From assembly GCF_054482595.1 (NCBI RefSeq), contig NZ_CM137008.1: a DNA stretch of 64,000 nucleotides; one strand, 5' to 3'. The position numbers and the translations under genes are program-made. The notes beneath the pieces were generated by a model that saw nothing but the letters and a program-made list of their open reading frames with translations, was not told where the DNA came from and did not search any database. Shown here piece after piece: positions 788 to 18,310 of this stretch (the stretch's first letter is position 1; each line of letters opens with the position of its first letter).

Positions 788-795
788 GAATTTTT

Positions 796-826
796 AGGCC
801 ATCCAAATTAACAATATGGATGGCCT
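796..826. terminator. Perfect 10-bp inverted repeat (aggccatcca / tggatggcct, 11-nt loop) between convergent dndE and DGQHR genes; possible bidirectional terminator or RNA-stabilising hairpin
   Basis: Inverted repeat read directly from sequence; no clean U-run on either side, so terminator function is uncertain. Confidence 0.35.
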
Positions 827-845
827 GAACAAAATTTAGTCAATT

Positions 846-2525: not shown

Positions 2526-2562
2526 GCTTTTTACCCTAACCTTGTACTATCTACAAAAATAA

Positions 2563-5500
2563 TCAAAAAACAAGCTCCCAAAACGCTCTATCTCGCATCT
2601 TGCTAACCCGCTTATCCCCATCAACATACAGACTGAAATGTTTTTCAAGCTGCCGAATCTGCCCCATTAACGACTCCTGTTCGCCCTTATCATCCACGTT
2701 GAATACAGCCTTGATATCCGCATTTTTAATTTCGGACACACGATGAATAACCCAGGTTAGAATATATGAAGCGTAATTGTTCTCTCCAGTTTTGAAGTGG
2801 GTAATTTCCTGCGTTGACAGGATCGCTCCAACACCATATTCACGACCTTCCTTAAGGATCTTCCTCAGACTGGAAAAGTCCTGGCGCATAAAGTTATCTG
2901 CCTCATCCACCAGAATCATCTTGGTGAGCTGACGATAATCCCCCTGAATCACTGGCTTGCCGCGTTTTTGCATTTGTGCATAAAACAGATCCAGGGTTAG
3001 CGCAACCACCAGGTTTTGAATCTCTGATGAGTAGCCAGCCAATTCGATAACTGTGACACCATCCACCAGATCATACAGACTCGTCATTTTCTCTGGGTCT
3101 GTTTCAAATATCTGAAACCCAGCTAAGTTATAAAGCGCGGCGTACAATGAGTCTTCTTCTACTTTTTCCTGAGCCAGATATCGCTGCCACACATCTTCTA
3201 TGGTCGGTGCAACACGGTTCCAGGTTGAGCGATCATGAGGCACTATTCCTGCTAATTCATAGCACTCCATGATTAGCGTAACCAGTTTCATACGCTGTTT
3301 CACACCCAGGTTATAGGCTTTCCCCATTGTTTCAGAAAATGCGATTGCGGTATGTCTGGGTAACATGGGCATATCACCAAACAGTGACAAAGGGTTATAA
3401 GGTAGTAACGATAATTGATATTTCTTACCGCCAGTAGCCTTCAGAAAAGCCTCGTCCACATAGTCAGATTTATAATCAAAGATCAGTAAACCAATCGATT
3501 TTCCATCAACGTTACAGGATTGGTTACGCATTAATTGTGTCACCAGCGATTTGGTAAATTGCGTTTTCCCGGTCCCCATCGTACCGATGATGCCTGTGTT
3601 GGTATTCATAAACTTCGTGGTGTTGGTCGGTTCCCAGAATAACGGGGTTTGCCGTGTAGCGTCATGACCAAATAATACTTGTAAGGGTACAGTGCTGACC
3701 TCTGGTGTCGGCTTTGGAATATCAGGTCGTGTGTCTGGCGGTGTCGTTACCTGCACTCCCGATGCTGATGGAGATGGGTGCTCATCACTCTCTGGCTTCA
3801 GACGGTATTTATCTGGTACCCGGTAGCGTTCAGCCAATGGCAATTTACCTTCACGGGTAGTGATTAACGAGGATAGTAATGAATAAGGAATTTCGATCTG
3901 TAAGATATTCGCTGTCGTCTCTTTATAGGAGAGATCGAAGCAAGATCCGCTGTCTACATGTGCAACAACAAAGCCATTAGCATAGTCTTTTAACTCACCC
4001 AACTGATAGTCACCGGTCAACCACCATTCGCGGCGATCCAACAGGGGAGCCAGCTTATCACTGTCCAGCACACCGTACAGCTGAAGTTTCTCTACCTGCA
4101 TCAGCACCTGTCGAATAAAGAGCGCGCGATAAAGTTGCGATGCCAGTGTATGCGGCTCCAGAATATCCTGCTGTAAATAACGTTTAAGCTCAGCAGCCTG
4201 CTGGCCCGCATAGTTGTAATCTGGTCGAGCGCCGGTTTTGACTTCCAGCGGCAGTAAATAGAGACGGTTTTCTTTAAAACCAACAAAGAGCACATCATCA
4301 GAGATTGCGCCTTTACGGTACCCCTGTAGATTTCTTGATAAATCGCTTTCCTTCATCTTTAGCCCGACGTTACCAGATACGCGAATCATTTCGGCTACAG
4401 ATAGCGGTACCCAGCAGATATCAGACTCACTCAGCATGGACTGTACAAATTTATACGCGCCAATGATGCCATATTTCTCTTTGCGCTCTTTTTCACTGGA
4501 GCGCAACATCTTCAGCAACCACTCACCGTTAAAAGCATTAAATTCGGCAAGTAGATGCTGGCTATCAACGGCAGATTGCCCGGACTGGCTTTCGGTCTGG
4601 AGCAGGCGGAGGAATAGATCGACCTGCTTCGTTACCGTCACTGCATCGTAGCCTGCACAACTAGTGTACTGATCGGAATAGTGGATCAGCACAACATCTT
4701 TCTGGCTAGTAAAGAAGTCAAGAGTAACTTTAGGGTCAATAATGGTGGTCCAGAGTGCACTGTTGTAAGAATAATTGAGTAGCTGTTTAAAATTGCCGCT
4801 TACGGCCAATCCAATCCCTTGTCCGTGGTATTGACTGTTGCTCTGACGCGCTGGCTGCCACAGGCAGCCCACTAACCGGGCAAGTCGTAGAGCGCAGTAA
4901 GATTCAGTATCAACATTCCGCAGGCCAAACGCGGTAAAGTAAGCATCCCCCTGTGTTTCAGCTCCTTCTCCGGAAATCAGCCCATGACACAGTACACCGC
5001 TGGCAGCATCCTCAATGCGGATCTGGCGGCAATCCACCGGAGCTGTATTGGTGAAAAACGCCAAATGTGCATAGGCCAATTTGTCGCTTTCTGACGGCAG
5101 GACAAATTTGCTGAACGTTAACCGACTGCGTAACAGGTCAATCAGCATATCGGCCTCAGCTCGCCACGCACCGCGGTTCAGGTCAAGGTCGTTTTTAAGC
5201 TGTTCATAGCTGCCACTCTCGGCAAAGCGATCAAACATATTTGGCAGCAGGCGTTCATCGTAGCAATTTACATGCACCGAAATAGCATGCTCTTTTTCCT
5301 GCTTAAAATATTCCACTAACCCCAGAAACAGTTCTTTCGCTGTTCCCTGATTAATAGCATTAATAATCAATGCATTGTTTCCGGGACTCTGAAATAGCCG
5401 GGCGTAGGCTTCGGTAAATTCATTGAGCTTGTCTTTTACCAAACGTTTTACGTAATCGTGGCTCACCTGGCGCTGGGGAACGACATCGATCCAGAAGCGA

Positions 5501-7638
5501 TTTTCTTCCACCGGCTGCAACTGTGCGTATTCGTGTTCACTGTGGTAAACGAATGGCATCAAGCCGGACACCACCAGACGATCAAGCGTAATGGTCGGTA
5601 GTGTGGCAAATGACGCTGAGTCGTATTGTTCCTGCTCTGCGCAGATAGTTTGTACCAGTTGTAAATGGTAGGCCAACACTAGGGGATGCAACGGGGAGAG
5701 ACGTTCATGACTGTCGACATTACAAATACCCAGATGCAGCAGGCGCTTTTCCTGCGCTGTTAACGCTCTGCTCAACTCGATTTGTTGAAGCGCCTGTTCA
5801 AAGGTCGTCACTATATGGCTTACCAGCGCGCAGTATTCTGCTGACCACGATACTAGGCTAGGTAAAGTACCGCAGCGCTGGTAGTAGAGGAATAATTGGT
5901 CGTAGGCGTTATAGAGATCGGGGTGGATGGCAACGAGTTCATCCAGCGCAAACGCGCTATCGTCATCTCCTGTCCCCAAAAGACGTTGATCAACTAATGA
6001 GGCTTCCAGCGCCAGTAACTGCTGGCGAACACCGACAACCTTGTGTTCGGTATTATCAAGAATGATACGACCCTTCAATCGGTTCCAGGACGCATTCCCG
6101 TCTTCTTTGAACAGTTTATTGAAACGACTCTGGTCAAAAAGTAGCGGTAAGGTTAACCCTTCTTCGGCTCCCGGCCCTTCGATATTGAATGCCAGACAAG
6201 AATCACCTGAAACAAGCTTAAATTGGATCAGATCGCTTTGATTTGCCAGTGTTTCAAAATTCACCAATGCATAATGCTGGCAGTCAATATCACCATTTTC
6301 TTCATCCAGTATACAGACTTGGCTACCCGACTCAGCGATTCGTAGTTCGTTGTCTTCGCGTTGGAGTGTGATTTGTGGTTTACCTGGCTCGATACGGAAA
6401 CAATGCTGAATATCGTCTAGCCAGAATTGTCCTTGTCTGACCAGTAACAGGCGGAACTTGTACTCTTCGGCTGAATTATTGCGATTAGTCAGTTCGAGGC
6501 TAAAGAAGCAGGGATTCCCATCGAAAGGAACCGACGCCATAATACGGGAGCTTTTACCCCCTGCACGACTAATTCGCCAGAAACGCTCTTTTTTTAACTG
6601 ACGATGATGCGCAATTTTTATCTGGTTATCCTGAAGATCGTTGCCCTGAAAGCAAAACTCCAGCTCAGTTTGCGATTGTTCGGGTGGTACCTGTACCAGT
6701 AGGCTGATATCGCGCTTGCCTGCTTTACTTGCGCTTTTCGCCCGTTGCCAAATCACGCCATTTTCGACCGTGATATCATCCAGTACCAGTTTTTGTTCGC
6801 GGTTCTGTTCTTTTTCGTTTAGATAAACAGCGAAATCAAGCTCGCGCCAGTCGTCTTTATCATTGAAATGTTCCTGAATAAATTTGGCGCTGAATTCAGT
6901 TAATACGTTCTCCAGTTGCCCACTGTAGCGTTCAACGCTGTCCTCGATTTGACGAAATAACTTCCTGTTTTCATTCAGTCGGGTATGGAGCTGTTTCTGG
7001 CTAAAATTCAGTAGTTCATCATCTTTAAACAGCGATAGCTCGGAGAAATCCAGATTGCCGTCATCCAGCAGGCGATACAACGACGAGAAGCCAAATACGG
7101 TCGCACCTTCATCCAGTACCGTTGTTCGTTGATCCTTTAATAAGCAACGCGACAACTCTGAACGGTTGTTGTCCGTCGTGATCAACTTTTCCAATTCATG
7201 ACTGAAGGTTTCGGGGTGCCAGATAGCTCCCGGTGCCGCGACGTCTTTTGTGCTGTTAATCAGGGTGTCCAGCATGCTGTTATGAATAATCAGCAGTGCA
7301 GTTTTGGCAAACACCCCGCTGCGGCCAGCAACTTCATCGCGTAAATGGGATATGTAGTTTTCCGTGAATGCTGGCGCTGCGGCTCCGTGCAGCACCGGAA
7401 TAAGCTGAATACCATTACAGGAGAGACAGGCAAGGCGCTGCTCTGGCGCAATTTCCAGATGATTGTCACCTGCCAGGTCAACAAAAGCCTGCCAGAGTTG
7501 TAGAGCATTGTCAGGGTCAGGAGATTTAAACTGGTAACGCTCACCAGGTTGAATAATGCCACTAACCCATTCAATAAAGGTTTCCGCCAGATAGGTTTCA
7601 TACTGTTTTACGGACATACACGGCGTCTCCACTGTCAC
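2563..7638 (-). CDS. dptH: DptH/DndH-like large ATPase/helicase-type protein of the phosphorothioate-dependent restriction module (1691 aa)
   Basis: 5076-bp ORF with Walker A (GIIGTMGTGKTQF) and Walker B-like (ILVDEADNF) motifs; third gene of a three-gene operon adjacent to dndDE; gene sizes match what I recall for dptFGH of Salmonella/E. coli dnd islands. Start may be the downstream ATG at 7617. Confidence 0.75.
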   Translation of the reverse strand: MTVETPCMSVKQYETYLAETFIEWVSGIIQPGERYQFKSPDPDNALQLWQAFVDLAGDNHLEIAPEQRLACLSCNGIQLIPVLHGAAAPAFTENYISHLRDEVAGRSGVFAKTALLIIHNSMLDTLINSTKDVAAPGAIWHPETFSHELEKLITTDNNRSELSRCLLKDQRTTVLDEGATVFGFSSLYRLLDDGNLDFSELSLFKDDELLNFSQKQLHTRLNENRKLFRQIEDSVERYSGQLENVLTEFSAKFIQEHFNDKDDWRELDFAVYLNEKEQNREQKLVLDDITVENGVIWQRAKSASKAGKRDISLLVQVPPEQSQTELEFCFQGNDLQDNQIKIAHHRQLKKERFWRISRAGGKSSRIMASVPFDGNPCFFSLELTNRNNSAEEYKFRLLLVRQGQFWLDDIQHCFRIEPGKPQITLQREDNELRIAESGSQVCILDEENGDIDCQHYALVNFETLANQSDLIQFKLVSGDSCLAFNIEGPGAEEGLTLPLLFDQSRFNKLFKEDGNASWNRLKGRIILDNTEHKVVGVRQQLLALEASLVDQRLLGTGDDDSAFALDELVAIHPDLYNAYDQLFLYYQRCGTLPSLVSWSAEYCALVSHIVTTFEQALQQIELSRALTAQEKRLLHLGICNVDSHERLSPLHPLVLAYHLQLVQTICAEQEQYDSASFATLPTITLDRLVVSGLMPFVYHSEHEYAQLQPVEENRFWIDVVPQRQVSHDYVKRLVKDKLNEFTEAYARLFQSPGNNALIINAINQGTAKELFLGLVEYFKQEKEHAISVHVNCYDERLLPNMFDRFAESGSYEQLKNDLDLNRGAWRAEADMLIDLLRSRLTFSKFVLPSESDKLAYAHLAFFTNTAPVDCRQIRIEDAASGVLCHGLISGEGAETQGDAYFTAFGLRNVDTESYCALRLARLVGCLWQPARQSNSQYHGQGIGLAVSGNFKQLLNYSYNSALWTTIIDPKVTLDFFTSQKDVVLIHYSDQYTSCAGYDAVTVTKQVDLFLRLLQTESQSGQSAVDSQHLLAEFNAFNGEWLLKMLRSSEKERKEKYGIIGAYKFVQSMLSESDICWVPLSVAEMIRVSGNVGLKMKESDLSRNLQGYRKGAISDDVLFVGFKENRLYLLPLEVKTGARPDYNYAGQQAAELKRYLQQDILEPHTLASQLYRALFIRQVLMQVEKLQLYGVLDSDKLAPLLDRREWWLTGDYQLGELKDYANGFVVAHVDSGSCFDLSYKETTANILQIEIPYSLLSSLITTREGKLPLAERYRVPDKYRLKPESDEHPSPSASGVQVTTPPDTRPDIPKPTPEVSTVPLQVLFGHDATRQTPLFWEPTNTTKFMNTNTGIIGTMGTGKTQFTKSLVTQLMRNQSCNVDGKSIGLLIFDYKSDYVDEAFLKATGGKKYQLSLLPYNPLSLFGDMPMLPRHTAIAFSETMGKAYNLGVKQRMKLVTLIMECYELAGIVPHDRSTWNRVAPTIEDVWQRYLAQEKVEEDSLYAALYNLAGFQIFETDPEKMTSLYDLVDGVTVIELAGYSSEIQNLVVALTLDLFYAQMQKRGKPVIQGDYRQLTKMILVDEADNFMRQDFSSLRKILKEGREYGVGAILSTQEITHFKTGENNYASYILTWVIHRVSEIKNADIKAVFNVDDKGEQESLMGQIRQLEKHFSLYVDGDKRVSKMRDRAFWELVF

Positions 7639-8923
7639 TCATTCGCTCCACATTTCCCATACGTTCATAAAACGCTACCAGCGTTTGTGCCGACTGGTTA
7701 TCCAGATAAAATCCGCGCTGTTCAAAGCCGCGCAGCAACTCATGCAGGCGTAGTTTGTCATTTTTACCCACAGTGAGATTGGTCAGCAGCAGCAGACGAT
7801 CCTGATTCAGTACCAGTACTTTTCCCGCCCGACCACGTACCTGAATGAAATCGGTGCAGATCTGGGTTTCAAGCTCGTTGATGTATTTCCGGTTAACTGT
7901 CGCACGATCAGATTTCTTATCCTGAAACTGTTCAACAGCAACGGTTAATAATTGTTTAAAAGCTTCTTCCAGCGTAACGGCTTGCGTATACTTCGATGCC
8001 GAAAGCTCGCGTTTTTCGATAAACTCCTGCAAATAATTATTGAGATCTTGCAGTAATTGAGATGAGTTATCAGAAAAATTTAAGCAATCCTGATAGACCT
8101 GCCAGAGTGGACGCTTCTTATCTCCTTTTATTTGTAGAACTTCCAGCGCGGAGAGTATTGGGAAAAGTTTTTCACTTTGACGAGCGAACCACTTATAACC
8201 AAAGCGTTTTATTTGATCCCGTTCAGAACTGGCTTTTTCAGTGTCGAGAATAAAGAAAAGCGACTTACTTTGTGGCTCGCCGTCCTGCCAGTTGTCCAGA
8301 TTGAGCGCTAGCTGGGCACACCAGCTAAAGGCATATAAACGCAGAGTATTAGTCAGTTCTTGTAACAAATATTGAGGGTGTTCTGCCAAAAACGCCAGAT
8401 CAGACTGAAAACAAGTCACCAGATAGGGAAGGTAGGGTTGTTCTTCAGAGAATGGGCCTTTTCCCAATAACTTTATTTTTTCATTGAGCTTATTTAGCAT
8501 TTGCTGCTCAATGAAGTTCAGCTTATCCTGGATAGGATATTCCAAGCTGAAATCTCCCATTAGATTAGCAAACAGAGTGCCAAGGCGTTTATCGGCCATT
8601 GAAGCGCCACTTATTTTTTCGCCATCAAACTGAGCATGAAATAGTAAAAAAAGCGGAGATACACGAAAGATATCTTCACTGGAAAAATACATCCGTTCCA
8701 GTACAGTCCAGAATGCTGGTTCATCAAGCAATTCTTGCAAATGAGCCTTGCAATCATCGCGAAATTGACTGGGAGTATAGGCATCAATTTTACGCTTCAG
8801 GGCGTAACTAAGCACCAATCCGGTGACAAATTGCCAGTTAATATCATTGTTTTTGTTACGTATCGGCAGATAACTATCCAGTTGATTATTACCTACTTTT
8901 AACGTCGTTGCGATAGGGTACAT
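7598..8923 (-). CDS. dptG: DptG/DndG-like protein (441 aa)
   Basis: 1326-bp ORF between dptF and dptH on the same strand, 4-nt gap from dptF stop; size and context match dptG. Confidence 0.7.
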   Translation of the reverse strand: MYPIATTLKVGNNQLDSYLPIRNKNNDINWQFVTGLVLSYALKRKIDAYTPSQFRDDCKAHLQELLDEPAFWTVLERMYFSSEDIFRVSPLFLLFHAQFDGEKISGASMADKRLGTLFANLMGDFSLEYPIQDKLNFIEQQMLNKLNEKIKLLGKGPFSEEQPYLPYLVTCFQSDLAFLAEHPQYLLQELTNTLRLYAFSWCAQLALNLDNWQDGEPQSKSLFFILDTEKASSERDQIKRFGYKWFARQSEKLFPILSALEVLQIKGDKKRPLWQVYQDCLNFSDNSSQLLQDLNNYLQEFIEKRELSASKYTQAVTLEEAFKQLLTVAVEQFQDKKSDRATVNRKYINELETQICTDFIQVRGRAGKVLVLNQDRLLLLTNLTVGKNDKLRLHELLRGFEQRGFYLDNQSAQTLVAFYERMGNVERMSDSGDAVYVRKTV

Positions 8924-8927
8924 TCCA

Positions 8928-10577
8928 CTAACCCTCCATACCGCTAATGGTGATCATGTCGTCGTCCGCTTTAGCGCGATAAACTCGCCGCCCACCAGCA
9001 TAAAACTTGATTTCGCTGCTGGATTTGGCCTGTTCAGTAATCAAATCAACGATTTCGTCCAGTAGAACAATGGCATTTTTATCGTATTTATTGGGGCGAT
9101 AGCCATTGTTTAATTTGTTCAAAAGTTCAAATAAATTAAGTCCGATACGAACTGGTAACAGAGAGTTTTGCCCAACTTTTAAATGCACGTCGAAGCCAGT
9201 AGGGTGGGCCGTATTTTTATTGCGGATGGCCTCCCAGTCAGGTTTCAATTCGACTGGCGCGGTTATTTTTACCCCACCATATTCACCTAAAAAGAACTCT
9301 TCTTTTTGCATACTCAATTCCGGCGCTTTGCGGTTTGCATAGCGCTGAATACCAGCAATAAGTTCGGATGTATAAAACCGGTTCAGTGCTTTTTTCTGCT
9401 CTGAGTCAGCGATGTAATTTTTGTGCAGATGCCAGATTTCTGAATAATGCTCAAATAAAGATTCATTGAAGAATACGGAAAATTTCTGATGATAATTATT
9501 CCCCAGAGATTCATCCTGCAGCAACCAGAAGAGCCGAATTAATGAAGCCGCATCACCCGGATTAACGCACTGGCGATCAAATCTAATGTGTAATGGCGCG
9601 AGTGCAGCTAAAAAATCATCCAGTTCAGGGTCAACCAGGCCCAATTCGTAGCGCAAAATAAACTGATCGATTTCATAGGTGTGCAGCCTAGCAGGATCAA
9701 AATCAGAAACTTTTTTAATCAGGTCGTTTTCTGCCCCAGTGAAAAGATTATCAAATAAATACCCCGGCCCCATAAGCAAATGATGCAGAAAATCCAATAG
9801 AGTTCGGGTTGTCACAAACTGATCTTTAATCAGGCGGGCCTTAAAGAGCTGAGTGATGAGAACATCCTGAACACCCGGCAGACAAAGTAATTTATAGTTA
9901 GCAACTTCTTTCAGCTCAGGGTTAACGGTCTCATCATGTCGAAAAATAAACTGAAACAAATTACTATCATCATTACGGGTTAAATTATCCAGTAATGTTT
10001 TAATAAACGATGAATACTGTTTTTTTTCATTAAACTGGAATTTAGGGTAATGCTCAAAGTCAAAAAAAGAACAATGCCCACTGCGGTATGGGCGGCTTTC
10101 TTCCTGATCTGCTGACAAGAAAGAATCGATCGCAGTGCGGATCGCCAGATGGCATTCAGCACCTTCTCTGGCAAAATTGGCGAGCATCCCGGTATTGATG
10201 CCTATAAGCAAAGGAGATGAGTATTGGTGATGATTGCTAAATAAATCATTTAAAGCATCAATAGCTGATTGCCGGGGAGCAAAGCTGTGTGTTGCATCCA
10301 GATGAAAACTAAAGCGCTGCTGATAACGAGGGTTTGACTTACAACGGGTCAAAATTTCGGACTTTCCATCACCACTACTGCCACACAAAAAGATGATTTC
10401 ACCGGGCTTAGCAACATCCAGATAACGTTGCAGCTCAGTTTCAATTTCTTGTTTAACAAAGAGTTGTTCTTTTAACTGATCGAACTCATCCTTTTGACGA
10501 TGCGTTACCGTGGTTACGGAAAACGAAGATGACTTCGCAAGTACACCCAACGCTTTACGTAATGTGATTGCGCTCAT
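8928..10577 (-). CDS. dptF: DptF/DndF-like P-loop ATPase (549 aa)
   Basis: 1650-bp ORF with Walker A-like motif FLCGSSGDGKSEI; first gene of the operon, preceded by an AT-rich 5' region. Confidence 0.7.
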   Translation of the reverse strand: MSAITLRKALGVLAKSSSFSVTTVTHRQKDEFDQLKEQLFVKQEIETELQRYLDVAKPGEIIFLCGSSGDGKSEILTRCKSNPRYQQRFSFHLDATHSFAPRQSAIDALNDLFSNHHQYSSPLLIGINTGMLANFAREGAECHLAIRTAIDSFLSADQEESRPYRSGHCSFFDFEHYPKFQFNEKKQYSSFIKTLLDNLTRNDDSNLFQFIFRHDETVNPELKEVANYKLLCLPGVQDVLITQLFKARLIKDQFVTTRTLLDFLHHLLMGPGYLFDNLFTGAENDLIKKVSDFDPARLHTYEIDQFILRYELGLVDPELDDFLAALAPLHIRFDRQCVNPGDAASLIRLFWLLQDESLGNNYHQKFSVFFNESLFEHYSEIWHLHKNYIADSEQKKALNRFYTSELIAGIQRYANRKAPELSMQKEEFFLGEYGGVKITAPVELKPDWEAIRNKNTAHPTGFDVHLKVGQNSLLPVRIGLNLFELLNKLNNGYRPNKYDKNAIVLLDEIVDLITEQAKSSSEIKFYAGGRRVYRAKADDDMITISGMEG

Positions 10578-10794
10578 AACTTCATGTTCTCAAAAGTAGG
10601 ATTATACCTATTCTATAAAAGCTATCCGCTGATATCTATAGGCACTTTGAGACATTTATTACGGGCAATTTTAAAATTGTATCTTTTCCATCCGTACACA
10701 AAACACATCCAGAGATGGCGGGGAAAATCCATCTATCAACCAGTTCCACTTTGGAAATTGCTTGATTAGTAGTATCTTAATCAAACACATACGC

Positions 10795-10975
10795 TAAATA
10801 TTACCCCCGATTGATTTTCGCATAGTCAAACAGCGTAATCGATCTCTCCCTATTCGCATCCAGAAAATCAGCCCACCATACTGCAAATCAGCTCGCGCTC
10901 ATCCAGATGTTCTGCCTTATGGATATACGCCCCCTTACCGATGTGACTCATCTGACGTTCAGCCGCTTTATCTCA
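10795..10975 (-). pseudogene. Decayed 3' fragment of a P4-type integrase gene (remnant of a second int copy)
   Basis: About 180 bp with roughly 75-80 percent identity (by eye) to the 3' end of the intact integrase gene at about 13930-14110 (for example gcatccagaaaatc...ttatggatatacgc...ctcatctgacgttca shared); same orientation; 5' two-thirds of the gene absent. Confidence 0.6.
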
Positions 10976-11072
10976 TGTTGTTCTGGTCTCAATACTTCCA
11001 TGCCGTTGCAATTACCTCTTAAACCAGCCCTTACCATTTTTATGGGTACGATAAGAAAACTTTATCGGGCAC

Positions 11073-11103
11073 GATCGATTTTATCGATCGATTCGATCGA
11101 AAA
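11073..11103 (+). promoter_or_regulatory. Cluster of three GATC sites inside tandem tcgatcgat-like repeats, about 90-115 bp upstream of the outer-membrane protein gene
   Basis: GATC at 11073-11076, 11086-11089 and 11095-11098, each inside CGATCG; read directly from sequence. Regulatory role is hypothetical. Confidence 0.3.
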
Positions 11104-11189
11104 CATTCCTTTTACCTTATCTTTTTCATGGTCTTAGAATGAGCAACCCCATTTATCGTTCGGGGAAAGTGATAGCGGAGATGATTGAA

Positions 11190-11930
11190 ATGAATAAGGT
11201 TATTGCGGTTTCAGCGCTTGCCATGGCAGGCATGTTTTCGACCCAGGCTCTGGCTGATGAAAGCAAAACAGGCTTTTATGTGACCGGTAAAGCAGGTGCT
11301 TCTGTTATGTCACTTGCAGACCAGCGTTTCCTGTCGGGGGATGGAGAGGAAACATCAAAATATAAAGGCGGTGATGGCCATGATACGGTATTCAGTGGCG
11401 GTATCGCGGCCGGTTATGATTTTTACCCGCAGTTCAGTATTCCGGTTCGTACGGAACTGGAGTTTTACGCTCGTGGAAAAGCTGATTCGAAGTATAACGT
11501 AGATAAAGACAGCTGGTCAGGCGGTTACTGGCGTGATGACCTGAAGAATGAGGTGTCAGTCAACACACTGATGCTGAATGCGTACTATGACTTCCGGAAT
11601 GACAGTGCATTCACACCATGGGTATCTGCAGGGATTGGCTACGCCAGAATTCACCAGAAAACAACCGGTATCAGTACCTGGGATTATGGGTACGGAAGCA
11701 GTGGTCGCGAATCGTTGTCACGTTCAGGCTCTGCTGACAACTTCGCATGGAGCCTTGGCGCGGGTGTCCGCTATGACGTAACCCCGGATATCGCTCTGGA
11801 CCTCAGCTATCGCTATCTTGATGCAGGTGATAGCAGTGTGAGTTACAAGGACGAGTGGGGCGATAAATATAAGTCAGAAGTTGATGTTAAAAGTCATGAC
11901 ATCCTGCTTGGTGTGACTTATAACTTCTGA
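11190..11930 (+). CDS. Outer-membrane beta-barrel protein, Hek/Tia/Hra-like adhesin/invasin family suspected (about 246 aa precursor)
   Basis: Start chosen at internal ATG 11190 preceded by GGAG at -12; typical signal peptide MNKVIAVSALAMAGMFSTQALA then DESK; alternating aromatic/glycine-rich beta-strand pattern; C-terminal YNF with terminal Phe typical of OMP beta-barrels. Family name is from memory only. Confidence 0.65.
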   Translation: MNKVIAVSALAMAGMFSTQALADESKTGFYVTGKAGASVMSLADQRFLSGDGEETSKYKGGDGHDTVFSGGIAAGYDFYPQFSIPVRTELEFYARGKADSKYNVDKDSWSGGYWRDDLKNEVSVNTLMLNAYYDFRNDSAFTPWVSAGIGYARIHQKTTGISTWDYGYGSSGRESLSRSGSADNFAWSLGAGVRYDVTPDIALDLSYRYLDAGDSSVSYKDEWGDKYKSEVDVKSHDILLGVTYNF

Positions 11931-12103
11931 CGACACTGCTCCTGAACGATAATACGTATATTTAGCAATTAAGATAATTGCGTATCTTCTGCAATTAAAC
12001 AGAAATACCCTGCAGTCTATTACTGCAGGGTTATCTGTTTCACAGATAATTTCTGATTTTTATTATCCTGTTCTCTTCATCATAATGTTGTCGATATACT
12101 CCG

Positions 12104-13603
12104 ATGAATATCAGAAAACTGTTTTGTCCGGGAAACACACCCCGGATTTTATTGTTTTTATTCTTTTTTGTTGTTTCTGCAATAACCACAATTGCATGCG
12201 GATACACTGAGAAGAATGCCACAGGAAATGTGCTGCTTCTGTTTCTCCTTCTTCTCCTTGCACACAGAAATACCCTCACATCCATTACAGCGCTGTTATT
12301 TCTGTTCTGTTGTGCACTGTATGCGCCTGCGGGTATGACGTACGGTAAAATCAACAACAGTTTTATTGTCGCGTTGCTGCAGACCACGGCTGATGAGGCT
12401 GCAGAGTTTACCGGGATGATTCCTGTTTATCATTTTCTGGTCAGTGCCGCGATTCTGGTATTCATGGTGATTTTCTGGCGGACACACCACCGCGGTCACC
12501 GTAACTGGCTGGCACTGCTGCTATTCGTATTATGCTCTGTAAACAGCTGGCCGTTGCGGATGGTTAAAGGAACTGTTGTGGGGACAACTGACACATTGCG
12601 TGAAATGCAGCGTTATAAACAACTGAGTCAGCACGGGGCTGATAACTGGAAAATCCTGCCGGGTGTGCCGTTGTATGACACGATTGTTATCGTTACTGGT
12701 GAGAGTGTGCGCAGGGATTATATGTCGGTATATGGCTATCCCGTGCCAACCACGCCGTGGCTGAATACTGCTCCCGGTTTATTTATTGACGGCTATACAT
12801 CGACAGCAGCCAGTACCGTACCTTCCCTGAGCCGGACACTGATTTATGACTATGAGCAGAACCCTGACTCCGGCAACAACGTGGTGGCGCTGGCAGCAAA
12901 AGCAGGATACAGCACATGGTGGATATCCAATCAGGGAAAACTGGGAGAGCATGACACACGCATCTCTGTTATTGCTTCTGATGCGGAGCATACCGTTTTC
13001 CTCAAGAAAGGCAGCTTCGCTTCCCGTAAAACGGATGACATGTTGTTGTTACAGGAAACAGAACGTGCGCTGGCGGATAAATCCTCGCCGAAGGTGATTT
13101 TCCTGCACATGATTGGCTCTCATCCGAATCCGTGTGACCGACTTAACTCCTGGCCGAATTATTACCTGGAGCAGTATCCCCGAAAGATTGCCTGTTACCT
13201 CGCCAGCATCAGTAAACTGGATAACTTTCTCGGTCAGCTTGATGGTATCCTTCGCCGGCATTCCCGTCACTTTGCAATGCTTTACTTTTCTGACCATGGG
13301 CTGTCGGTCAGCGACAGTGCTAATCCTGTTCATCATGATGGTCATGTGCAGGGGGGCTACAGCGTTCCCCTGATTATTACCGCCAGTGACATCACGTCTC
13401 ATCAGTCCGTCAGCAGGAAAATCAGTGCCCGTAATTTCGCAGGCATTTTTCAGTGGCTGACCGGTATTCGTACCGAAAATATAACGCCATTCAATCCGCT
13501 GACAGACGAAGATAATGAACCCGTTATGGTTTTTAACGGAGAGAAAAATGTGCCGGCAGACAGTCTGAAACCGCAGCCACTTATTCTTCCGGACCACAGG
13601 TAA
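12104..13603 (+). CDS. Inner-membrane sulfatase-family / phosphoethanolamine transferase-like protein (YhbX/YjgX-like, 499 aa)
   Basis: N-terminal hydrophobic helices followed by a periplasmic domain with motifs IVTGESVRRDY, HMIGSHPNP and LYFSDHG, typical of the alkaline-phosphatase-superfamily PEA transferases; position next to the leuX integrase matches the K-12 yjgX locus. Confidence 0.6.
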   Translation: MNIRKLFCPGNTPRILLFLFFFVVSAITTIACGYTEKNATGNVLLLFLLLLLAHRNTLTSITALLFLFCCALYAPAGMTYGKINNSFIVALLQTTADEAAEFTGMIPVYHFLVSAAILVFMVIFWRTHHRGHRNWLALLLFVLCSVNSWPLRMVKGTVVGTTDTLREMQRYKQLSQHGADNWKILPGVPLYDTIVIVTGESVRRDYMSVYGYPVPTTPWLNTAPGLFIDGYTSTAASTVPSLSRTLIYDYEQNPDSGNNVVALAAKAGYSTWWISNQGKLGEHDTRISVIASDAEHTVFLKKGSFASRKTDDMLLLQETERALADKSSPKVIFLHMIGSHPNPCDRLNSWPNYYLEQYPRKIACYLASISKLDNFLGQLDGILRRHSRHFAMLYFSDHGLSVSDSANPVHHDGHVQGGYSVPLIITASDITSHQSVSRKISARNFAGIFQWLTGIRTENITPFNPLTDEDNEPVMVFNGEKNVPADSLKPQPLILPDHR

Positions 13604-13926
13604 TCATATATGGCAAACTGTAATACAGTCTCTTGTACTGAAAAGGATTCTGTATAGAATAGAACCTGTATTCATATCAGCACAAGGGACCACCAAATCC
13701 CGGCAACATTCCTTACGTCAGTTATCCCGCATCACCCTGTGGGTGCGGGATTTTTTATGATGTTTCTTTTTATTGAATATATATAAATAACGAATAACTG
13801 CGGATTCTGATAATCCACCTGCAGGGAGCAATCCGGTAAACATTTAATACATCAGTTAATATCGTTTTGCCTTTTTAACAAAGAAAATATTCATGGAGTA
13901 AGTTCCCGGGCATTTGCCCGGGATGA

Positions 13927-15192
13927 TTACTGTTTTAATGGATTATTAATCTTTGCATATTCAAATGGACTGATAAATTTTTCTCTGTTTGCATCCAGAA
14001 AATCGGCCCACCATTGTAGCATCAAGCGGCGTTCTTCCAGATGCTCTGCTTTATGGATATACGCGGCCCTCACTGAATTTCGCTCCATGTGGCTCATCTG
14101 ACGTTCAACAGCATCACGAGACCACAAACCTGATTCGACCAATGAACTACAGGCCATTGTTCGAAAGCCATGACCACAAACCTCTACTTTTGTATCATAC
14201 CCCATGACCCGTAACGCACTATTTACCGTATTCTCACTCATGGGTTTGTGCGAATCGTGATCACCAATAAATATCAAGTCATGGGCCCCACAAAACTGTT
14301 TTATCTGCTTTAAAATTGCAAGAGCTTGCGTTGAAAGAGGCACTAGATGCGTTGTACGCATTTTTGAGCCTCTATGGGAATGTTTCACTCCAGGAATAGG
14401 CTCCCGCTCCGGTGGGATAGTCCATATAGACGCTTCGAAATCGATCTCTGACCAACGAGCAAAACGCAGCTCACTGGACCGAATAAAGATCAGCAAAGAG
14501 AGTTCTGTCGCCCATCGGGTTAGCGGCCTACCAGTATAGCTATCTATTTTTGTAAGCAACTCAGGGATGCGCTTTAATTCAAGCGCGGGACGATGTTGTC
14601 GATTACAGGAAGCAACCGCCCCAGCCATCTCTTGTGCCGGGTTATAATCAATTAACCCACTTTGCACTGCATAGCGCATGATGGCTGTAGTGCGCTGCTG
14701 AAGACGAGCGGCCACTTCAAGACGTCCAGACATTTCTACGGCCTTAATGGGTGCTAATAAATCTCGAGTTTTTAACTCAGCGATATTACGTTCACCAAGC
14801 GCTGCAAAAAGATTATCTTCCAGACTTTTTAGCACACGATGGGCGTGATCTTCAGACCACTTTTTATTGGTGCCATGCCACTCAATCGCGACTTCTTTAA
14901 AGGTTCGTGCTTTACTCTGTTCAACCTTATCATTTTTCTTTTTGTCTCCCGGATCGACGCCATTCGCAAGCAGCTTACGCGCCTCGTCACGACGTACTCT
15001 GGCATCCGCTAGTGTGATTTCAGGATAAACCCCAAGTGCCAGCATTTTTTGCTTTCCCTCATAACGGTACTGCAAACGCCAGTACTTAGAACCATTTGGA
15101 TGGACAAGCAGATGCATACCGCCACCATCAGTCAGCTTATATTGCTTATCCGTTGGCTTGGCTGCTCTGACTTTGATATCTGTTAATGCCAT
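13927..15192 (-). CDS. intB: P4-type tyrosine recombinase/integrase (IntB-like, 421 aa)
   Basis: Translation MALTDIKVRAAKPTDKQYKLTDGGGMHLLVHPNGSKYWRLQYRY... is a typical P4-family integrase N-terminus, with C-terminal catalytic region motifs (HGFR, Y near the C-terminus); start is adjacent to the 3' end of tRNA-Leu. Confidence 0.85.
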   Translation of the reverse strand: MALTDIKVRAAKPTDKQYKLTDGGGMHLLVHPNGSKYWRLQYRYEGKQKMLALGVYPEITLADARVRRDEARKLLANGVDPGDKKKNDKVEQSKARTFKEVAIEWHGTNKKWSEDHAHRVLKSLEDNLFAALGERNIAELKTRDLLAPIKAVEMSGRLEVAARLQQRTTAIMRYAVQSGLIDYNPAQEMAGAVASCNRQHRPALELKRIPELLTKIDSYTGRPLTRWATELSLLIFIRSSELRFARWSEIDFEASIWTIPPEREPIPGVKHSHRGSKMRTTHLVPLSTQALAILKQIKQFCGAHDLIFIGDHDSHKPMSENTVNSALRVMGYDTKVEVCGHGFRTMACSSLVESGLWSRDAVERQMSHMERNSVRAAYIHKAEHLEERRLMLQWWADFLDANREKFISPFEYAKINNPLKQ

Positions 15193-15658: not shown

Positions 15659-16678
15659 ATGTCGATGATAAAAAGCTATGCCGCAAAAGAAGCAGGCGGC
15701 GAATTGGAAGTTTATGAGTACGATCCCGGTGAACTGAAGCCATAAGATGTTGAAGTGCAGGTGGATTACTGCGGGATCTGCCATTCCGATCTGTCGATGA
15801 TCGATAACGAATGGGGATTTTCACAATATCCGCTGGTTGCCGGGCATGAGGTGATTGGGCGCGTGGTGGCACTCGGGAGCGCCGCGCAGGATAAAGGTTT
15901 GCAGGTCGGTCAGCGTGTCGGGATTGGCTGGACGGCGCGTAGCTGTGGTCACTGCGACGCCTGTATTAGCGGTAATCAGATCAACTGCGAGCAAGGTGCG
16001 GTGCCGACGATTATGAATCGCGGTGGCTTTGCCGAGAAGTTACGTGCGGACTGGCAATGGGTGATTCCACTGCCAGAAAATATTGATATCGAGTCCGCCG
16101 GGCCGCTGTTGTGCGGCGGTATCACGGTCTTTAAACCACTGTTGATGCACCATATCACTGCTACCAGCCGCGTTGGGGTAATTGGTATTGGCGGGCTGGG
16201 GCATATCGCTATAAAACTTCTGCACGCAATGGGATGCGAGGTGACGGCCTTTAGTTCTAATCCGGCGAAAGAGCAGGAAGTACTGGCGATGGGTGCCGAT
16301 AAAGTGGTGAATAGCCGCGATCCGCAGGCACTGAAAGCCCTGTCGGGGCAGTTTGATCTCATTATCAATACTGTGAACGTCAGCCTCGACTGGCAGCCTT
16401 ATTTTGAGGCGCTGACCTATGGCGGTAATTTCCATACAGTCGGTGCGGTTCTCACGCCGTTGCCGGTTCCGGCCTTTACGCTGATTGCGGGCGATCGCAG
16501 TGTCTCTGGCTCTGCTACCGGTACACCTTATGAGTTGCGTAAGCTGATGCGCTTTGCCGCCCGCAGCAAGGTTGCGCCGACTACCGAACTGTTCCCGATG
16601 TCGAAAATTAACGACGCCATCCAGCATGTGCGCGACGGTAAGGCGCGTTACCGCGTGGTTCTGAAAGCTGACTTCTGA
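15659..16678 (+). pseudogene. ahr: Zinc-dependent aldehyde reductase Ahr (YjgB) with in-frame TAA at codon 29 (15743-15745)
   Basis: ATG at 15659 gives [28 protein letters not shown] then TAA, then the frame continues [16 protein letters not shown]... through the full MDR-family alcohol dehydrogenase to 16678; the ORF track only picks up from GTG 15755. Confidence 0.65.
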
Positions 16679-16807: not shown

Positions 16808-18310
16808 ATGAGCGAACCCCTGTTAATTGCCCGTACGCCGGACACAGAACTGTTTTTACTACCCGCTATGGCTAACCGTCACGGACTGATTACTGGCGCA
16901 ACGGGGACGGGTAAAACCGTTACGCTGCAAAAACTGGCAGAGTCATTGTCGGAAATCGGCGTGCCGGTGTTTATGGCTGATGTGAAAGGCGATCTGACCG
17001 GTATCGCGCAGGCAGGAACGGCGTCGGAAAAACTGCTCACAAGGCTTAAAAATATCGGCGTCAATGACTGGCAACCGCATGCCAATCCGGTGGTGGTGTG
17101 GGATATCTTTGGCGAGAAAGGCCATCCGGTGCGGGCGACGGTCTCGGATCTGGGGCCGCTGTTGCTGGCGCGGCTGTTGAATCTCAACGATGTGCAATCT
17201 GGCGTGCTGAATATCATTTTCCGCATTGCTGACGATCAGGGGCTGTTACTGCTCGACTTTAAAGATCTACGGGCAATTACCCAGTACATCGGCGATAACG
17301 CCAAATCTTTCCAGAATCAGTACGGTAATATCAGTAGCGCATCGGTTGGTGCCATCCAGCGCGGGCTGTTGTCGCTGGAACAGCAAGGCGCAGCACACTT
17401 CTTTGGTGAGCCGATGCTGGATATCAAAGACTGGATGCGCACCGATGCCAACGGTAAAGGCGTTATTAATATCCTCAGCGCCGAGAAGCTTTATCAGATG
17501 CCGAAACTGTACGCCGCCAGCCTGCTGTGGATGATTTCAGAGTTGTATGAACAATTGCCGGAAGCGGGCGATCTGGAGAAGCCAAAACTGGTGTTTTTCT
17601 TCGACGAAGCACATCTGCTGTTTAACGATGCACCGCAGGTACTGCTGGATAAGATTGAGCAGGTGATAAGGCTTATTCGCTCAAAAGGCGTGGGCGTCTG
17701 GTTCGTTTCGCAAAACCCGTCTGATATTCCAGATAATGTGCTCGGCCAGCTCGGTAATCGCGTTCAGCACGCTTTGCGGGCTTTTACGCCAAAAGATCAG
17801 AAAGCAGTGAAGGCAGCGGCGCAAACCATGCGGGCTAATCCGGCGTTTGATATCGAAAAGGCAATCCAGGAACTGGGGACGGGCGAAGCGTTGATCTCGT
17901 TTCTCGATGCAAAAGGAAGTCCTTCTGTGGTGGAACGGGCGATGGTGATTGCGCCTTGTTCGCGGATGGGACCGGTGACGGAAGATGAGCGCAATGGCTT
18001 GATTAATCACTCTCCGGTGTATGGCAAGTACGAGGATGACGTGGACCGGGAATCCGCCTATGAGATGTTGCAAAAAGGCTTTCAGGCCAGTACCGAGCAG
18101 CAAAATAATCCCCCCGCGAAAGGGAAAGAGGTAGCGGTAGATGACGGCATTCTTGGTGGATTGAAGGATATTTTGTTCGGCACTACCGGACCACGCGGCG
18201 GGAAGAAAGATGGTGTGGTGCAAACAATGGCCAAAAGCGCCGCTCGCCAAGTGACGAATCAGATTGTACGCGGGATGTTGGGGAGTTTGCTGGGGGGGAG
18301 AAGAAGGTAA
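16808..18310 (+). CDS. yjgR: P-loop NTPase YjgR (DUF853 family, 500 aa)
   Basis: Translation [37 protein letters not shown]... with Walker A; real start at internal ATG 16808. Confidence 0.85.

Follow-up and report, generated by a model that had tools for sequence, protein, structure and literature searches.

A conserved GATC triplet upstream of an Hra1/Hek/Tia-family adhesin gene as a candidate Dam-sensitive operator for a LysR-type regulator

Is the outer-membrane adhesin gene of this DNA subject to epigenetic ON/OFF control? Three Dam sites (GATC) lie close together 5' of the gene in the window, by which we mean the whole 64-kb stretch of DNA that was analysed. It is proposed here, at roughly even confidence, that a LysR-type factor, most likely OxyR, uses this triplet as an operator sensitive to Dam methylation and thereby controls the promoter of an Hra1/Hek/Tia-family adhesin; sequence comparison favours OxyR as the putative switch protein, with HdfR as its main rival. 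The first-pass annotation had placed three GATC sites within 26 bp, each in a CGATCG, some 90-115 bp 5' of the start codon of the outer membrane protein (OMP) gene, and had described them as tandem repeats. The positions were confirmed (Table 1), the CGATCG hexamers start at 11072, 11085 and 11094, the distance to the RefSeq-chosen start at 11190 is 92-117 bp, and Tandem Repeats Finder returns a 13-bp period with 2.2 copies at 11072-11100 (consensus CGATCGATTCGAT).

Table 1. Coordinates of the GATC module, the predicted promoter and the adjoining genes in the window
Feature	Coordinates	Strand	Description
Conserved upstream box CGATAAGAAA	11049..11058	+	Nearly invariant in alignment of variants
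Whole GATC module	11072..11100	.	Overlapping dyads CGATCGAT-ttt-ATCGATCG and TCGATCGA-t-TCGATCGA; inverted repeats I7, I8
GATC-1	11073..11076	.	Dam site; left end of half-site X
Half-site X, ATCGATTTTATCGAT	11074..11088	+	LysR-type (OxyR-like) candidate recognition dyad, centre about -66
15-mer ATCGATCGATTCGAT	11083..11097	+	Counterpart of HdfR-dependent part of Salmonella std UAS
GATC-2	11086..11089	.	Dam site; right end of half-site X; 13 bp from GATC-1
GATC-3	11095..11098	.	Dam site; first positions of half-site Y; 9 bp from GATC-2
Half-site Y, ATCGAAAACATTCCT	11096..11110	+	Weak, promoter-proximal, abuts -35, centre about -44
GATC-free zone	11099..14258	.	Spans whole OMP and PEtN-transferase cassette
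Predicted sigma-70 promoter	11111..11140	+	-35 TTTACC, 18-nt spacer, -10 TAGAAT
Hra1/Hek/Tia-family outer-membrane adhesin-invasin gene	11190..11930	+	246 aa, 8-stranded beta-barrel; RefSeq 'outer membrane protein'
Phosphoethanolamine (PEtN) transferase gene	12104..13603	+	Conserved OMP partner

The encoded OMP is 99% identical to the single module-bearing OMP of EAEC 042, a strain used for work on Hra1 (PMC5863034); it is 69% identical to a PGAP-annotated Tia and matches PF13505 (E = 6.5e-24). Placed through the EAEC 042 copy and the PGAP Tia, it is by sequence an adhesin of the Hra/Hek/Tia/Hes family, whose members are integral beta-barrel OMPs of about 25 kDa. In UPEC, NMEC, APEC, EAEC, ETEC and LEE-negative STEC the Hra1/Hek/Tia/Hes proteins are in wide use as markers of virulence. 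The gene lies on the horizontally acquired leuX island, with dptF, an integrase remnant and the PEtN-transferase gene as neighbours and no regulator gene in the cassette. The same PEtN-transferase gene stands 3' of the OMP gene in 042, APEC O2-211, Ecol224 and SMBL; in the window the gap between the two genes contains a hairpin with a 10-bp stem (12007-12031) and a promoter-like site (12039-12066), and the transferase gene probably has a promoter of its own. A search of 10570-12110, which includes the OMP leader region, against Rfam gave no match at E <= 1. An open reading frame of 76 aa that overlaps the module (10907-11137) was judged not conserved, because the upstream flanks cannot be aligned among variants.

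A tight GATC triplet had been regarded in the first-pass annotation as a hallmark of phase variation in itself; this premise is too strong, because chance alone yields about one such cluster in 64 kb. The window has four clusters of three GATC in 26 bp against 0.87 expected, at least one is present in 57% of Markov-3 simulations of the window, and clustering by itself was consequently rejected as evidence. The triplet of the hra1-type promoter is the sole intergenic one of the four, the rest lying in mpl, ytfT and chpB, and the pattern GATCGnTnnnAnCGATC, which is formed around its first two GATCs, occurs once in the window against 0.01 expected. A short tandem repeat that arose by chance or mutation and has no regulatory role would suit the chance rate (about 0.9 per 64 kb), the presence of four clusters and the short 13-bp repeat found by Tandem Repeats Finder. 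This account is nevertheless highly improbable: the module retains 0.92 identity amid unalignable flanks, recurs in four genera at a fixed distance to the -10, and matches exactly the pattern of known operators.

Comparison of 11 diverged promoters gives a mean pairwise identity of 0.92 for the module and 0.91 for the core promoter; the spacer that separates the two has 0.55, the far-upstream flank 0.56 and the block 11031-11071 0.78. No other intergenic block is conserved as well as these two, and the promoters otherwise diverge completely upstream, a distribution that points to strong purifying selection on the GATC module. About 30% of the complete E. coli genomes (some 1,598 of 5,426) have the module, intergenic every time, with EAEC 042, UTI89/RS218, H10407 and W2-5 among the carriers and roughly 1,900 copies in E. 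coli genomes overall. It occurs also in Yokenella, Kluyvera and Buttiauxella. The latter come from a cross-species scan with 34 matches, of which those in cyanobacteria (which carry HIP1-type GATCG-rich repeats) and unrelated taxa, the majority, were treated as chance and only the five in Enterobacteriaceae were used. In Yokenella the same core stands at the same distance from a different core promoter, 5' of genes for unrelated secreted proteins; the distance of the module to the -10 is fixed even where the core promoter differs. An NCBIfam search of this alternative cargo (Yokenella proteins of 154 aa and 120 aa, Q5 of 122 aa and L029 of 239 aa) gave no match. An att or arm site of the integrase was considered as an origin of the module and rejected, since module, promoter and gene are found together in contexts that have no integrase remnant, namely next to papG, subA, atoS and an hns-like gene and in Yokenella.

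Between the module and the OMP start there is a single promoter-like site on the + strand (Table 1). The module lies about 12-40 bp 5' of the predicted -35 and at about -50 to -75, with GATC-3 starting at about -52 and centred at -50.5 relative to the predicted transcription start, which the model puts near 11147; as this start is a prediction only, all promoter-relative positions are provisional. Dam/OxyR switches have two or more GATCs within the regulator-binding region of a promoter; here all three, in 11073-11098, are in a putative region of this kind directly 5' of the predicted -35 at 11111. The strong palindromic candidate half-site X, followed by the weak half-site Y abutting the -35, has the layout of recognition site and activation site that is typical of LysR-type activators.

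A resemblance to OxyR operators is seen in the half-site bracketed by GATC-1 and GATC-2. Its sequence, GATCGATTTTATCGATC, is an exact fit to GATCGnTnnnAnCGATC, the form common to agn43 (GATCGTTTATATCGATC) and to A and C of P22 gtr, whose OxyR half-sites are associated with GATC pairs (PMC2909390); mom fits the same pattern at 11 of the 12 specified positions. X scores 8/10 against the OxyR consensus ATAGnTnnnAnCTAT, a value reached at only 17 of the 64,000 window positions, and keeps G4, T6, A10 and C12, as do agn43 and gtr A/C, while mom keeps the first three and the counterpart in Salmonella std has A4 and A6 instead of G4 and T6. Y scores 5/10 and follows X at N7, giving 13/20 for the two together. 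The whole-site score was rejected as a discriminator: agn43 reaches 14-16, mom 13-14 and gtr 18, but std, which is not a known OxyR target, has 14, as high as mom and the window, and a score of at least 13/20 is also found in 4% of random 100-nt windows. The 13-bp GATC spacing recurs in agn43 (II-III), gtr (1-2 and 3-4), mom (II-III) and std (1-2).

Each of the known Dam/OxyR systems shares some features of the window element. In agn43, as here, three GATCs lie in one OxyR-type site of about 37 bp, a core of CGATCGwTTwTATCGATCGAT is shared at 19 of 21 positions when compared by eye, the half-sites ATCGTTTATATCGAT and ATCGATTTTATCGAT each score 8/10 with GATCs 13 bp apart, and both genes encode self-associating surface adhesins on mobile islands. 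However, the agn43 operator is located 3' of the transcription start and OxyR represses from it, whereas the window element is 5' of the -35; the GATC spacing is 19+13 against 13+9, the GATC that stands apart from the 13-bp pair lies, with respect to the gene, on the other side, and beyond the core no homology was detectable between the two (best ungapped 34/57). In mom the three GATCs are 5' of the promoter, as in the window. They presumably lie at about -52 to -87, the proximal one near -52 like GATC-3 of the window relative to its predicted start. OxyR represses mom, and the phage activator C is required. Module variants with a 9-bp insertion are spaced 13+18 and reproduce, when read on the opposite strand, the 18+13 arrangement of mom; in register they match mom at 29 of 43 positions (17 of 31 outside the GATCs; shuffle p ~0.001); the window's own variant, by contrast, has the 9-bp and not the 18-bp spacing, and mom is no phase-variation system. 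In gtr the GATC pairs are likewise 13 bp apart and each brackets one 8/10 half-site. In opvAB a weak half-site, OBS_D (7/10 at -43, with GATC4 at -49.5), is located directly 5' of the -35 and is needed for activation; Y at -44 and GATC-3, centred at -50.5 on the predicted start, occupy the same position. The gtr, opvAB and window genes all concern surface structures. On the other hand, gtr and opvAB have three or four half-sites over 100-130 bp between which OxyR alternates, while the window element spans about 40 bp and has at most two or three overlapping half-sites; by analogy it appears closer to a single-site competition switch than to an alternative-site switch.

The first-pass annotation had suggested control by Dam with either OxyR or Lrp. 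Comparison supports the OxyR part, through conservation, the half-site fit to agn43 and gtr, and a promoter-proximal position like that of opvAB GATC4 and mom GATC-III. The Lrp part does not hold up, as there is neither a GATC about 102 bp away nor a PapI/PapB-type gene. A pap-like switch, in which Lrp and a PapI-like co-regulator move between proximal and distal GATC sites, is the least probable reading of all. A tia-type copy in APEC O2-211 lies directly 3' of papG, so that certain hosts might also contain pap regulators. Yet the GATC spacings are 13 and 9 bp rather than about 100 bp; the next GATC upstream, at 10841, is 232 bp away, within an integrase remnant that is missing from many variants; the cassette has no papI/papB-type gene, nor do most of the genomic surroundings of the module; and the module occurs in many contexts that lack pap. 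A Fur/Dam switch of the sci1 T6SS type was rejected as well: the best Fur-box match in 11000-11160 is 10/19, and 72 window positions score at least 12.

Natural variation of the module bears on the choice between OxyR and HdfR. Among 18 module variants, GATC-1 is kept in 17 and lost only in JNE120393 (GATC to GATT), GATC-2 is kept in 17 and lost in EC556 (CGATCGAT to CTATCTAT), and GATC-3 is at +22 in most, at +31 in four (one of them with both) and absent in the Ecol224 type. From GATC-3 to the -35 hexamer there is a constant 16 nt, the 9-bp insertion variants included. The insertion falls between X and Y, so that the X-Y spacing toggles between N7 and N16, with a second half-site of 8/10 at N16; OxyR has two known binding modes, N7 and N17, and the spacings of the element are close to both. 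The JNE120393 change is at position 3 and the EC556 change at position 13 (G to T, towards the consensus CTAT); judged against the consensus, these natural GATC-destroying mutations spare the OxyR determinants. The tia-type promoters are weaker matches, with only 4/10 for Y and 7/10 for X, which has G at consensus position A10.

The first-pass annotation had also offered an operator for some other regulator as an alternative, and this suggestion gains substance in one specific form, HdfR, since the Salmonella std UAS has the same GATC spacing and in part the same sequence. The latter has three GATCs at -242, -229 and -220 (PMC6735912), a 13+9 spacing within 25-26 bp that is identical to that of 11073/11086/11095. 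The std sequence ACGATCATAATCATCGATCGTATCGATCTATTTT is identical to the window at 22 of 34 positions, and at 13 of 15 in the segment ATCGATCGTATCGAT, which corresponds to the window 15-mer and covers the HdfR-dependent part; HdfR binding in std depends on GATC-2 and GATC-3 (PMC6735912). As in the proposed OxyR operator, the outcome would be a Dam-sensitive LysR-type ON/OFF switch, but here HdfR would bind the unmethylated GATC-2/GATC-3 dyad and activate; std itself controls an adhesin and is OFF when methylated. The Hra-family variant AR_0085, in which G4 is lost, is more std-like than the others and intermediate between the module and std. We searched the literature for a recognition motif of HdfR and found none described. 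The hdfR gene is a chromosomal gene of E. coli. Its product has been discussed as an E. coli regulator (PMC2094087). Several observations nevertheless make HdfR the less likely protein, though one still to be taken seriously. The 13-bp pair of std scores 6/10 and lacks G4 and T6, and its GATC-1 is dispensable, whereas the window module keeps both determinants and its GATCGATTTT is almost invariant and OxyR-canonical. In the 13+18 variants, which nonetheless stand 5' of orthologous genes, the std-like 9-bp dyad is disrupted. The changes that remove GATC-2 in EC556 have counterparts in std that abolish HdfR binding (PMC6735912), and in EC556 they improve the OxyR match. Finally, std acts from about -230 and needs a feedback loop of the operon-encoded activators StdE/StdF, while the window element lies at about -50 to -75 and its cassette carries no regulator gene; StdE/F-like genes were looked for in the cassette and not found.

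Still less probable is that the conserved block serves a methylation-independent factor as operator or nucleation site, either as a high-affinity H-NS site that silences an acquired gene or for another dimeric regulator of ATCGAT-type palindromes, with incidental GATCs and conventional regulation in place of bistability. The minus strand at 11078-11087, TCGATAAAAT, matches the H-NS motif tCGATAAATT at 9 of 10 positions (PMC2094087). The island that carries the locus was acquired horizontally, three variants have a divergent H-NS-family gene upstream, and perfect palindromes like these would fit a dimeric helix-turn-helix protein of any kind. However, H-NS has a degenerate motif, with validated sites fitting at 5.5-9/10 (PMC2094087); eight other sites in the window score at least 9/10, and the match at 11078-11087 is therefore not distinctive. 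Moreover, the motif omits the flanking G, A and C that complete the GATCs, though those bases are conserved, and the region is only moderately AT-rich (GC content 0.42-0.45). A methylation-independent factor would also leave unexplained the exact match in register to four proven Dam-sensitive operators and the complete purge of GATCs from the 3.2 kb downstream.

This purge concerns the stretch 3' of the triplet. The nearest GATC neighbours of the triplet are at 10841 and 14259, and the 3,160 bp that follow GATC-3 contain none, against about 13 expected from the composition of that stretch itself; zero was reached in 0 of 2,000 simulations. The OMP coding sequence has no GATC in 6 of 7 diverged variants. 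The gtr (P22) and opvAB loci are GATC-poor like the cassette of the window.

From the observed anatomy, conservation and resemblances we infer a switch whose protein, methylation states, polarity and bistability may be pictured as follows, with OxyR as the preferred regulator. After replication, the regulator and Dam would compete for the hemimethylated element. If the regulator binds, all three GATCs would be shielded and the unmethylated, bound state inherited; if Dam acts first, the methylated GATCs would exclude the regulator and the methylated state would be inherited. Two heritable subpopulations would result, one with the adhesin ON and one with the adhesin OFF. As to polarity, bound and unmethylated as ON, methylated as OFF, is slightly favoured over the opposite, mom/agn43-like polarity, because the promoter is weak and Y is at the place of the activating OBS_D of opvAB. 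In an ST131 methylome paper, a passage that lists no individual sites names competition by DNA-binding proteins as a possible cause of unmethylated Dam sites. Since the element is strongly conserved and portable and closely resembles known methylation-controlled operators, epigenetic ON/OFF switching of the Hra1/Tia-type adhesin is probable; no report of it was found in the literature searched.

A broader proposal is made more tentatively, as we find it possible but doubtful: the block may be a compact portable switch cassette, made up of a Dam-sensitive LysR-type operator and a weak promoter, that has spread on genomic islands in E. coli and other Enterobacteriaceae and puts the Hra1/Hek/Tia/Hes adhesin-invasins, and also unrelated secreted proteins, under heritable ON/OFF control, with other GATCs purged and natural single-GATC losses phase-locked. 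The absence of GATCs from 3.2 kb could then protect the switch from Dam or SeqA acting processively, and EC556, JNE120393 and the Ecol224 type would be phase-locked alleles.

In the literature searched, which included a search for the literal DNA string, no report was found that links hra1, hek, tia or hes to Dam, OxyR or HdfR, nor anything on the regulation of the Hra1/Hek/Tia/Hes proteins; primary papers were covered in part, and absence is not thereby proven. Deletion of hra1 in EAEC 042 gave no in vitro phenotype, yet Hra1 alone suffices for aggregation (PMC5863034). If the proposed switch is real, it would add a new locus to the few epigenetic phase-variation systems of E. coli (the pap family, agn43 and sci1), would offer another possible reason why the EAEC 042 deletion had no in vitro phenotype (PMC5863034), and would bear on the use of Hra1/Hek/Tia/Hes proteins as vaccines or antigens. 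The 40-bp architecture, together with its N7/N16 variants and single-GATC knock-outs, constitutes a natural allelic series for competition between LysR-type factors and Dam, and its likeness to both OxyR- and HdfR-bound operators raises the question whether the two factors may have Dam-sensitive targets in common.

The window is E. coli DNA and matches strain W2-5 at 100% identity. The GATC block (within window 11060-11104, ctttatcgggcacGATCGATtttATCGATCGATtCGATCGaaaac) lies in the leuX tRNA island, in which dnd/dptFGH phosphorothioation genes are followed by an integrase remnant, the outer-membrane protein (OMP) gene, a phosphoethanolamine (PEtN) transferase gene, a P4-type integrase and tRNA-Leu. 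A sequence scan recovered the three Dam sites (GATC-1 to GATC-3) described in the first-pass annotation, each within CGATCG, and since the RefSeq start of the downstream ORF is 11190 they lie 92-117 bp upstream of the OMP start, in agreement with the distance it gave. The tandem repetition it reported is also borne out by Tandem Repeats Finder, which returns an array at 11072-11100 with a period of 13 bp and 2.2 copies; two perfect dyads, CGATCGAT-ttt-ATCGATCG and TCGATCGA-t-TCGATCGA, overlap in the block. As a mere cluster the triplet carries low statistical weight; four clusters of three GATCs within 26 bp occur in the window where 0.87 would be expected, and at least one turns up in 57% of simulated windows. 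It is the sole intergenic cluster of the four, because the other three are inside mpl, ytfT and chpB. Tight GATC clusters elsewhere (Table) lie in mpl, ytfT, chpB and a fragment of an alcohol-dehydrogenase gene, each one a coding sequence or a pseudogene, and GATC is commoner than expected window-wide (308 vs 250 from shuffles).

Table. Coordinates and conservation of features of the OMP cassette and of related loci
Feature	Locus	Position	Strand	Mean pairwise identity (11-sequence alignment)	Detail
dnd/dptFGH restriction system	window	1-10577			complete; adjoins adhesin cassette
Far upstream region	window			0.56
GATC-1, GATC-2, GATC-3	window	11073, 11086, 11095
GATC module	window	11072-11100		0.92
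Half-site X	window	11074-11088			bracketed by GATC-1 and GATC-2
Half-site Y	window	11096-11110			begins at GATC-3
10-bp spacer	window			0.55
Predicted sigma-70 promoter (-35 to -10)	window	-35 TTTACC at 11111; -10 TAGAAT ending 11140	+	0.91	18-nt spacer; sole promoter-like site from GATC block to OMP
5' UTR	window			0.74
Start of coding sequence	window			0.77
OMP gene	window	11190..11930	+
Hairpin	window	12007-12031			OMP/PEtN-transferase gap
Promoter-like site	window	12039-12066			after hairpin
PEtN transferase gene	window	12104..13603	+
GATC-free stretch	window	11099-14258
Other tight GATC clusters	window	49475-49490, 53205-53227, 57384-57408, 15775-15802
H-NS-family (hns-like) gene, divergent	L006; L010; L053	483-854; 236-709; 1-275
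EC556 allele	L054	~401-433
Q5 type	L008	1164-1532
Combat2C1 type	L011	1111-1479
Yokenella regensburgei core	L045	4785-4804
Yokenella 154-aa and 120-aa proteins	L045	4645..4181; 4095..3733	-
UBA3516 two-GATC core	L029	13103-13122
HdfR-dependent std part	L052 (Salmonella CP074257.1)	17577-17591

The OMP is a 246-aa, 8-stranded beta-barrel protein with a PF13505 match, 69% identity to PGAP-annotated Tia and 99% identity to the single homologous copy of EAEC 042, the strain used to characterise Hra1 (PMC5863034); these matches place it in the Hra1/Hek/Tia/Hes family of adhesin-invasins. Past GATC-3 no GATC occurs for 3,160 bp, a stretch spanning both the OMP and the PEtN-transferase genes, so that the operator triplet provides the cassette's only Dam sites. 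About 13 GATCs are expected there from its own composition and zero was reached in 0 of 2,000 simulations; the gap is twice the length of the next-longest GATC-free gap in the window, and the OMP coding sequence lacks GATC in 6/7 diverged variants. The gtr and std loci do contain GATC, at the low density of 1.0-1.8 per kb. The GATC-free stretch strengthens the case that the triplet is functional. The gap between the two genes holds a hairpin with a perfect 10-bp stem (ACCCTGCAGT...ACTGCAGGGT); its T tail is weak, and we read the hairpin as terminator-like in both directions. The neighbouring dnd region has a split or duplicated dndB-like part (a DGQHR-domain protein and a short DndB), and the system includes an 'accessory gene regulator B family' gene.

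Relatives of the 281-bp upstream region, with identity from 100% to ~70%, occur in 1,685 of 5,426 complete E. coli genomes, and the bare 43-bp module was found in 1,598 genomes, intergenic every time. In an alignment of 11 representatives from different islands, with papG, subA, an hns-like gene or integrase remnants as neighbours, the GATC module and the core promoter are, judged by identity (Table), the two selected elements. GATC-1 and GATC-2 are each kept in 17/18 variants; most have the third GATC at +22 and four have it at +31, one of these carrying both, while one type has lost it. The third GATC and the -35 are always 16 nt apart, which puts the 9-bp indel after the first dyad and before the promoter-proximal part. 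In the EC556 allele two G-to-T changes 4 bp apart turn CGATCGAT into CTATCTAT, destroying GATC-2 and creating two CTAT (OxyR consensus arm); it is a candidate phase-locked variant. The cassette cargo is variable, since in some E. coli (Q5, Combat2C1) the module and promoter drive the gene of a hypothetical protein of 122 aa, with an Hra-family OMP ~220 bp beyond that gene. The module accompanies the gene and not the integrase remnant, and an integrase site was thus rejected.

The block was compared with the sequences of proven Dam-sensitive operators. K-12 agn43 reads ACGATCAATATCTAT-N7-ATCGTTTATATCGAT with GATC spacing 19+13, Mu mom has spacing 18+13, and the P22 gtr half-sites A (ATCGGTAACAACGAT) and C (ATCGCTTGTATCGAT) each lie between GATCs 13 bp apart (Broadbent et al., PMC2909390). 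The form GATCGnTnnnAnCGATC is common to agn43 II-III, gtr A and gtr C, with mom departing from it at one position (A at C12); window 11073-11089 fits it exactly, the only occurrence in 64 kb against 0.01 expected. X scores 8/10 against the consensus ATAGnTnnnAnCTAT, a level attained at 17 of 64,000 positions, and X-N7-Y (11074-11110) scores 13/20, where the same scan gives the agn43 site 14/20; 4% of random 100-nt windows reach at least 13. Aligned in register with mom, the other strand of the variants with 13+18 spacing agrees at 29/43 positions, or 17/31 if the GATCs are left aside (shuffle p ~0.001); in these variants X is followed after 16 nt by a second half-site scoring 8/10. The activating half-site of opvAB, OBS_D (7/10), has its centre at -43, directly upstream of the -35, and bears GATC4 at -49.5 (PMC4856963); the corresponding values for Y and GATC-3 are -44 and -50.5, with the TSS assumed ~7 nt past the predicted -10.

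The main rival factor is HdfR, a LysR-type regulator whose binding to the Salmonella std UAS is restricted to unmethylated DNA and depends on GATC-2 and GATC-3, GATC-1 being dispensable (PMC6735912). The three std GATCs (-242, -229, -220; PMC6735912) have exactly the 13+9 spacing of our triplet. In the std sequence, located on a complete chromosome with the Salmonella Idi ortholog as starting point, the UAS ACGATCATAATCATCGATCGTATCGATCTATTTT is identical to the window at 22/34 positions and the HdfR-dependent 15-mer ATCGATCGTATCGAT matches window 11083-11097 at 13/15; the AR_0085 variant, which has lost G4 and is intermediate to std, counts against OxyR. The HdfR-dependent part is a perfect 6-3-6 palindrome, ATCGAT-CGT-ATCGAT. 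Against the OxyR consensus this 15-mer reaches 8/10, and the std region taken as a full site 14/20, a value to be set beside the random rate, so consensus scoring cannot separate the two regulators, which may recognise very similar dyads. Four observations favour OxyR. The 13-bp pair of the module keeps the determinants G4 and T6, like agn43, gtr and mom, whereas std has A4 and A6 and a dispensable GATC-1. The 13+18 variants break the std-like 9-bp dyad and recreate the mom architecture. Natural GATC losses hit positions where GATC-type sites already depart from the OxyR consensus (position 3 in JNE120393; position 13, G to T, giving the CTAT arm in EC556); GATC-2 mutations abolished HdfR binding at std (PMC6735912). 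Finally, the module sits at the -35, compared with -230 for the std UAS, and the cassette has no StdE/F-type genes. We put OxyR at about even chances and regard HdfR as an unlikely factor.

H-NS may well silence the adhesin promoter: the minus strand at 11078-11087 (TCGATAAAAT) matches the high-affinity motif tCGATAAATT (PMC2094087) at 9/10, and some variants carry a divergent H-NS-family gene upstream. As a rival reading of the block, H-NS suffers from a degenerate motif that has 8 matches in the window and leaves the conservation of the GATC-completing bases unexplained. The H-NS-family gene is intact in Ec1117 and a pseudogene in Ecol224 and FXCREC035. The pap/Lrp model also put forward in the first-pass annotation did not hold up, as no GATC lies ~100 bp off (the nearest are at 10841 and 14259) and the cassette has no papI/papB. 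A Fur/Dam switch was rejected, the best Fur-box match at the module being 10/19, and the leader region gave no Rfam match.

Scanning 100,044 species genomes for the exact core brought up five Enterobacteriaceae records. The Yokenella regensburgei core does not differ from the tia type and keeps the same spacing to its core promoter, which is a different one; it drives a pair of unrelated proteins with signal peptides (154 and 120 aa) and no NCBIfam match, and core and genes lie inside a mobile element. In Kluyvera and Buttiauxella the core directly follows a terminator, and two MAGs carry it. In one of these, the Enterobacteriaceae MAG UBA3516, a two-GATC version (ATCGATCGATTTTATCGATCGATAATCAATTAACAATAGGT) lies next to a gene for a TonB-dependent outer-membrane receptor, in the region that separates it from a divergent ORF of 239 aa, with a second half-site ATAGGTTTTGTGAAT (7/10) seen by eye at N16 after the first.

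These comparisons identify the module as a strongly conserved, portable element of ~40 bp directly upstream of a weak predicted sigma-70 promoter, ending 12 bp before the -35, and built of a strong palindromic LysR-type half-site bracketed by two GATCs plus a weak promoter-proximal half-site starting at the third, with natural spacing variants N7 and N16. It is very probably a functional cis-regulatory element, and we consider it fairly probable that it is Dam-sensitive and gives heterogeneous expression. We propose that a LysR-type tetramer, more likely OxyR than HdfR, would bind only unmethylated DNA and block Dam, and that competition after replication would set up two states, each heritable. 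Of these, the bound one is probably ON, given a geometry like that of opvAB: here the promoter is weak, with a recognition site near -66 and an activation site near -44; repression by the bound regulator, as at mom and agn43, is a possible alternative polarity. Our literature search, not exhaustive of primary papers, found no link of Hra1/Hek/Tia/Hes to Dam, OxyR or HdfR, nor the GATC element sequence in print. From its sequence we class the element as a putative Dam-dependent LysR-type switch, one that would be unusual in its compact hybrid architecture, between OxyR-type and std-type operators, and in the complete GATC depletion of the switch cargo.
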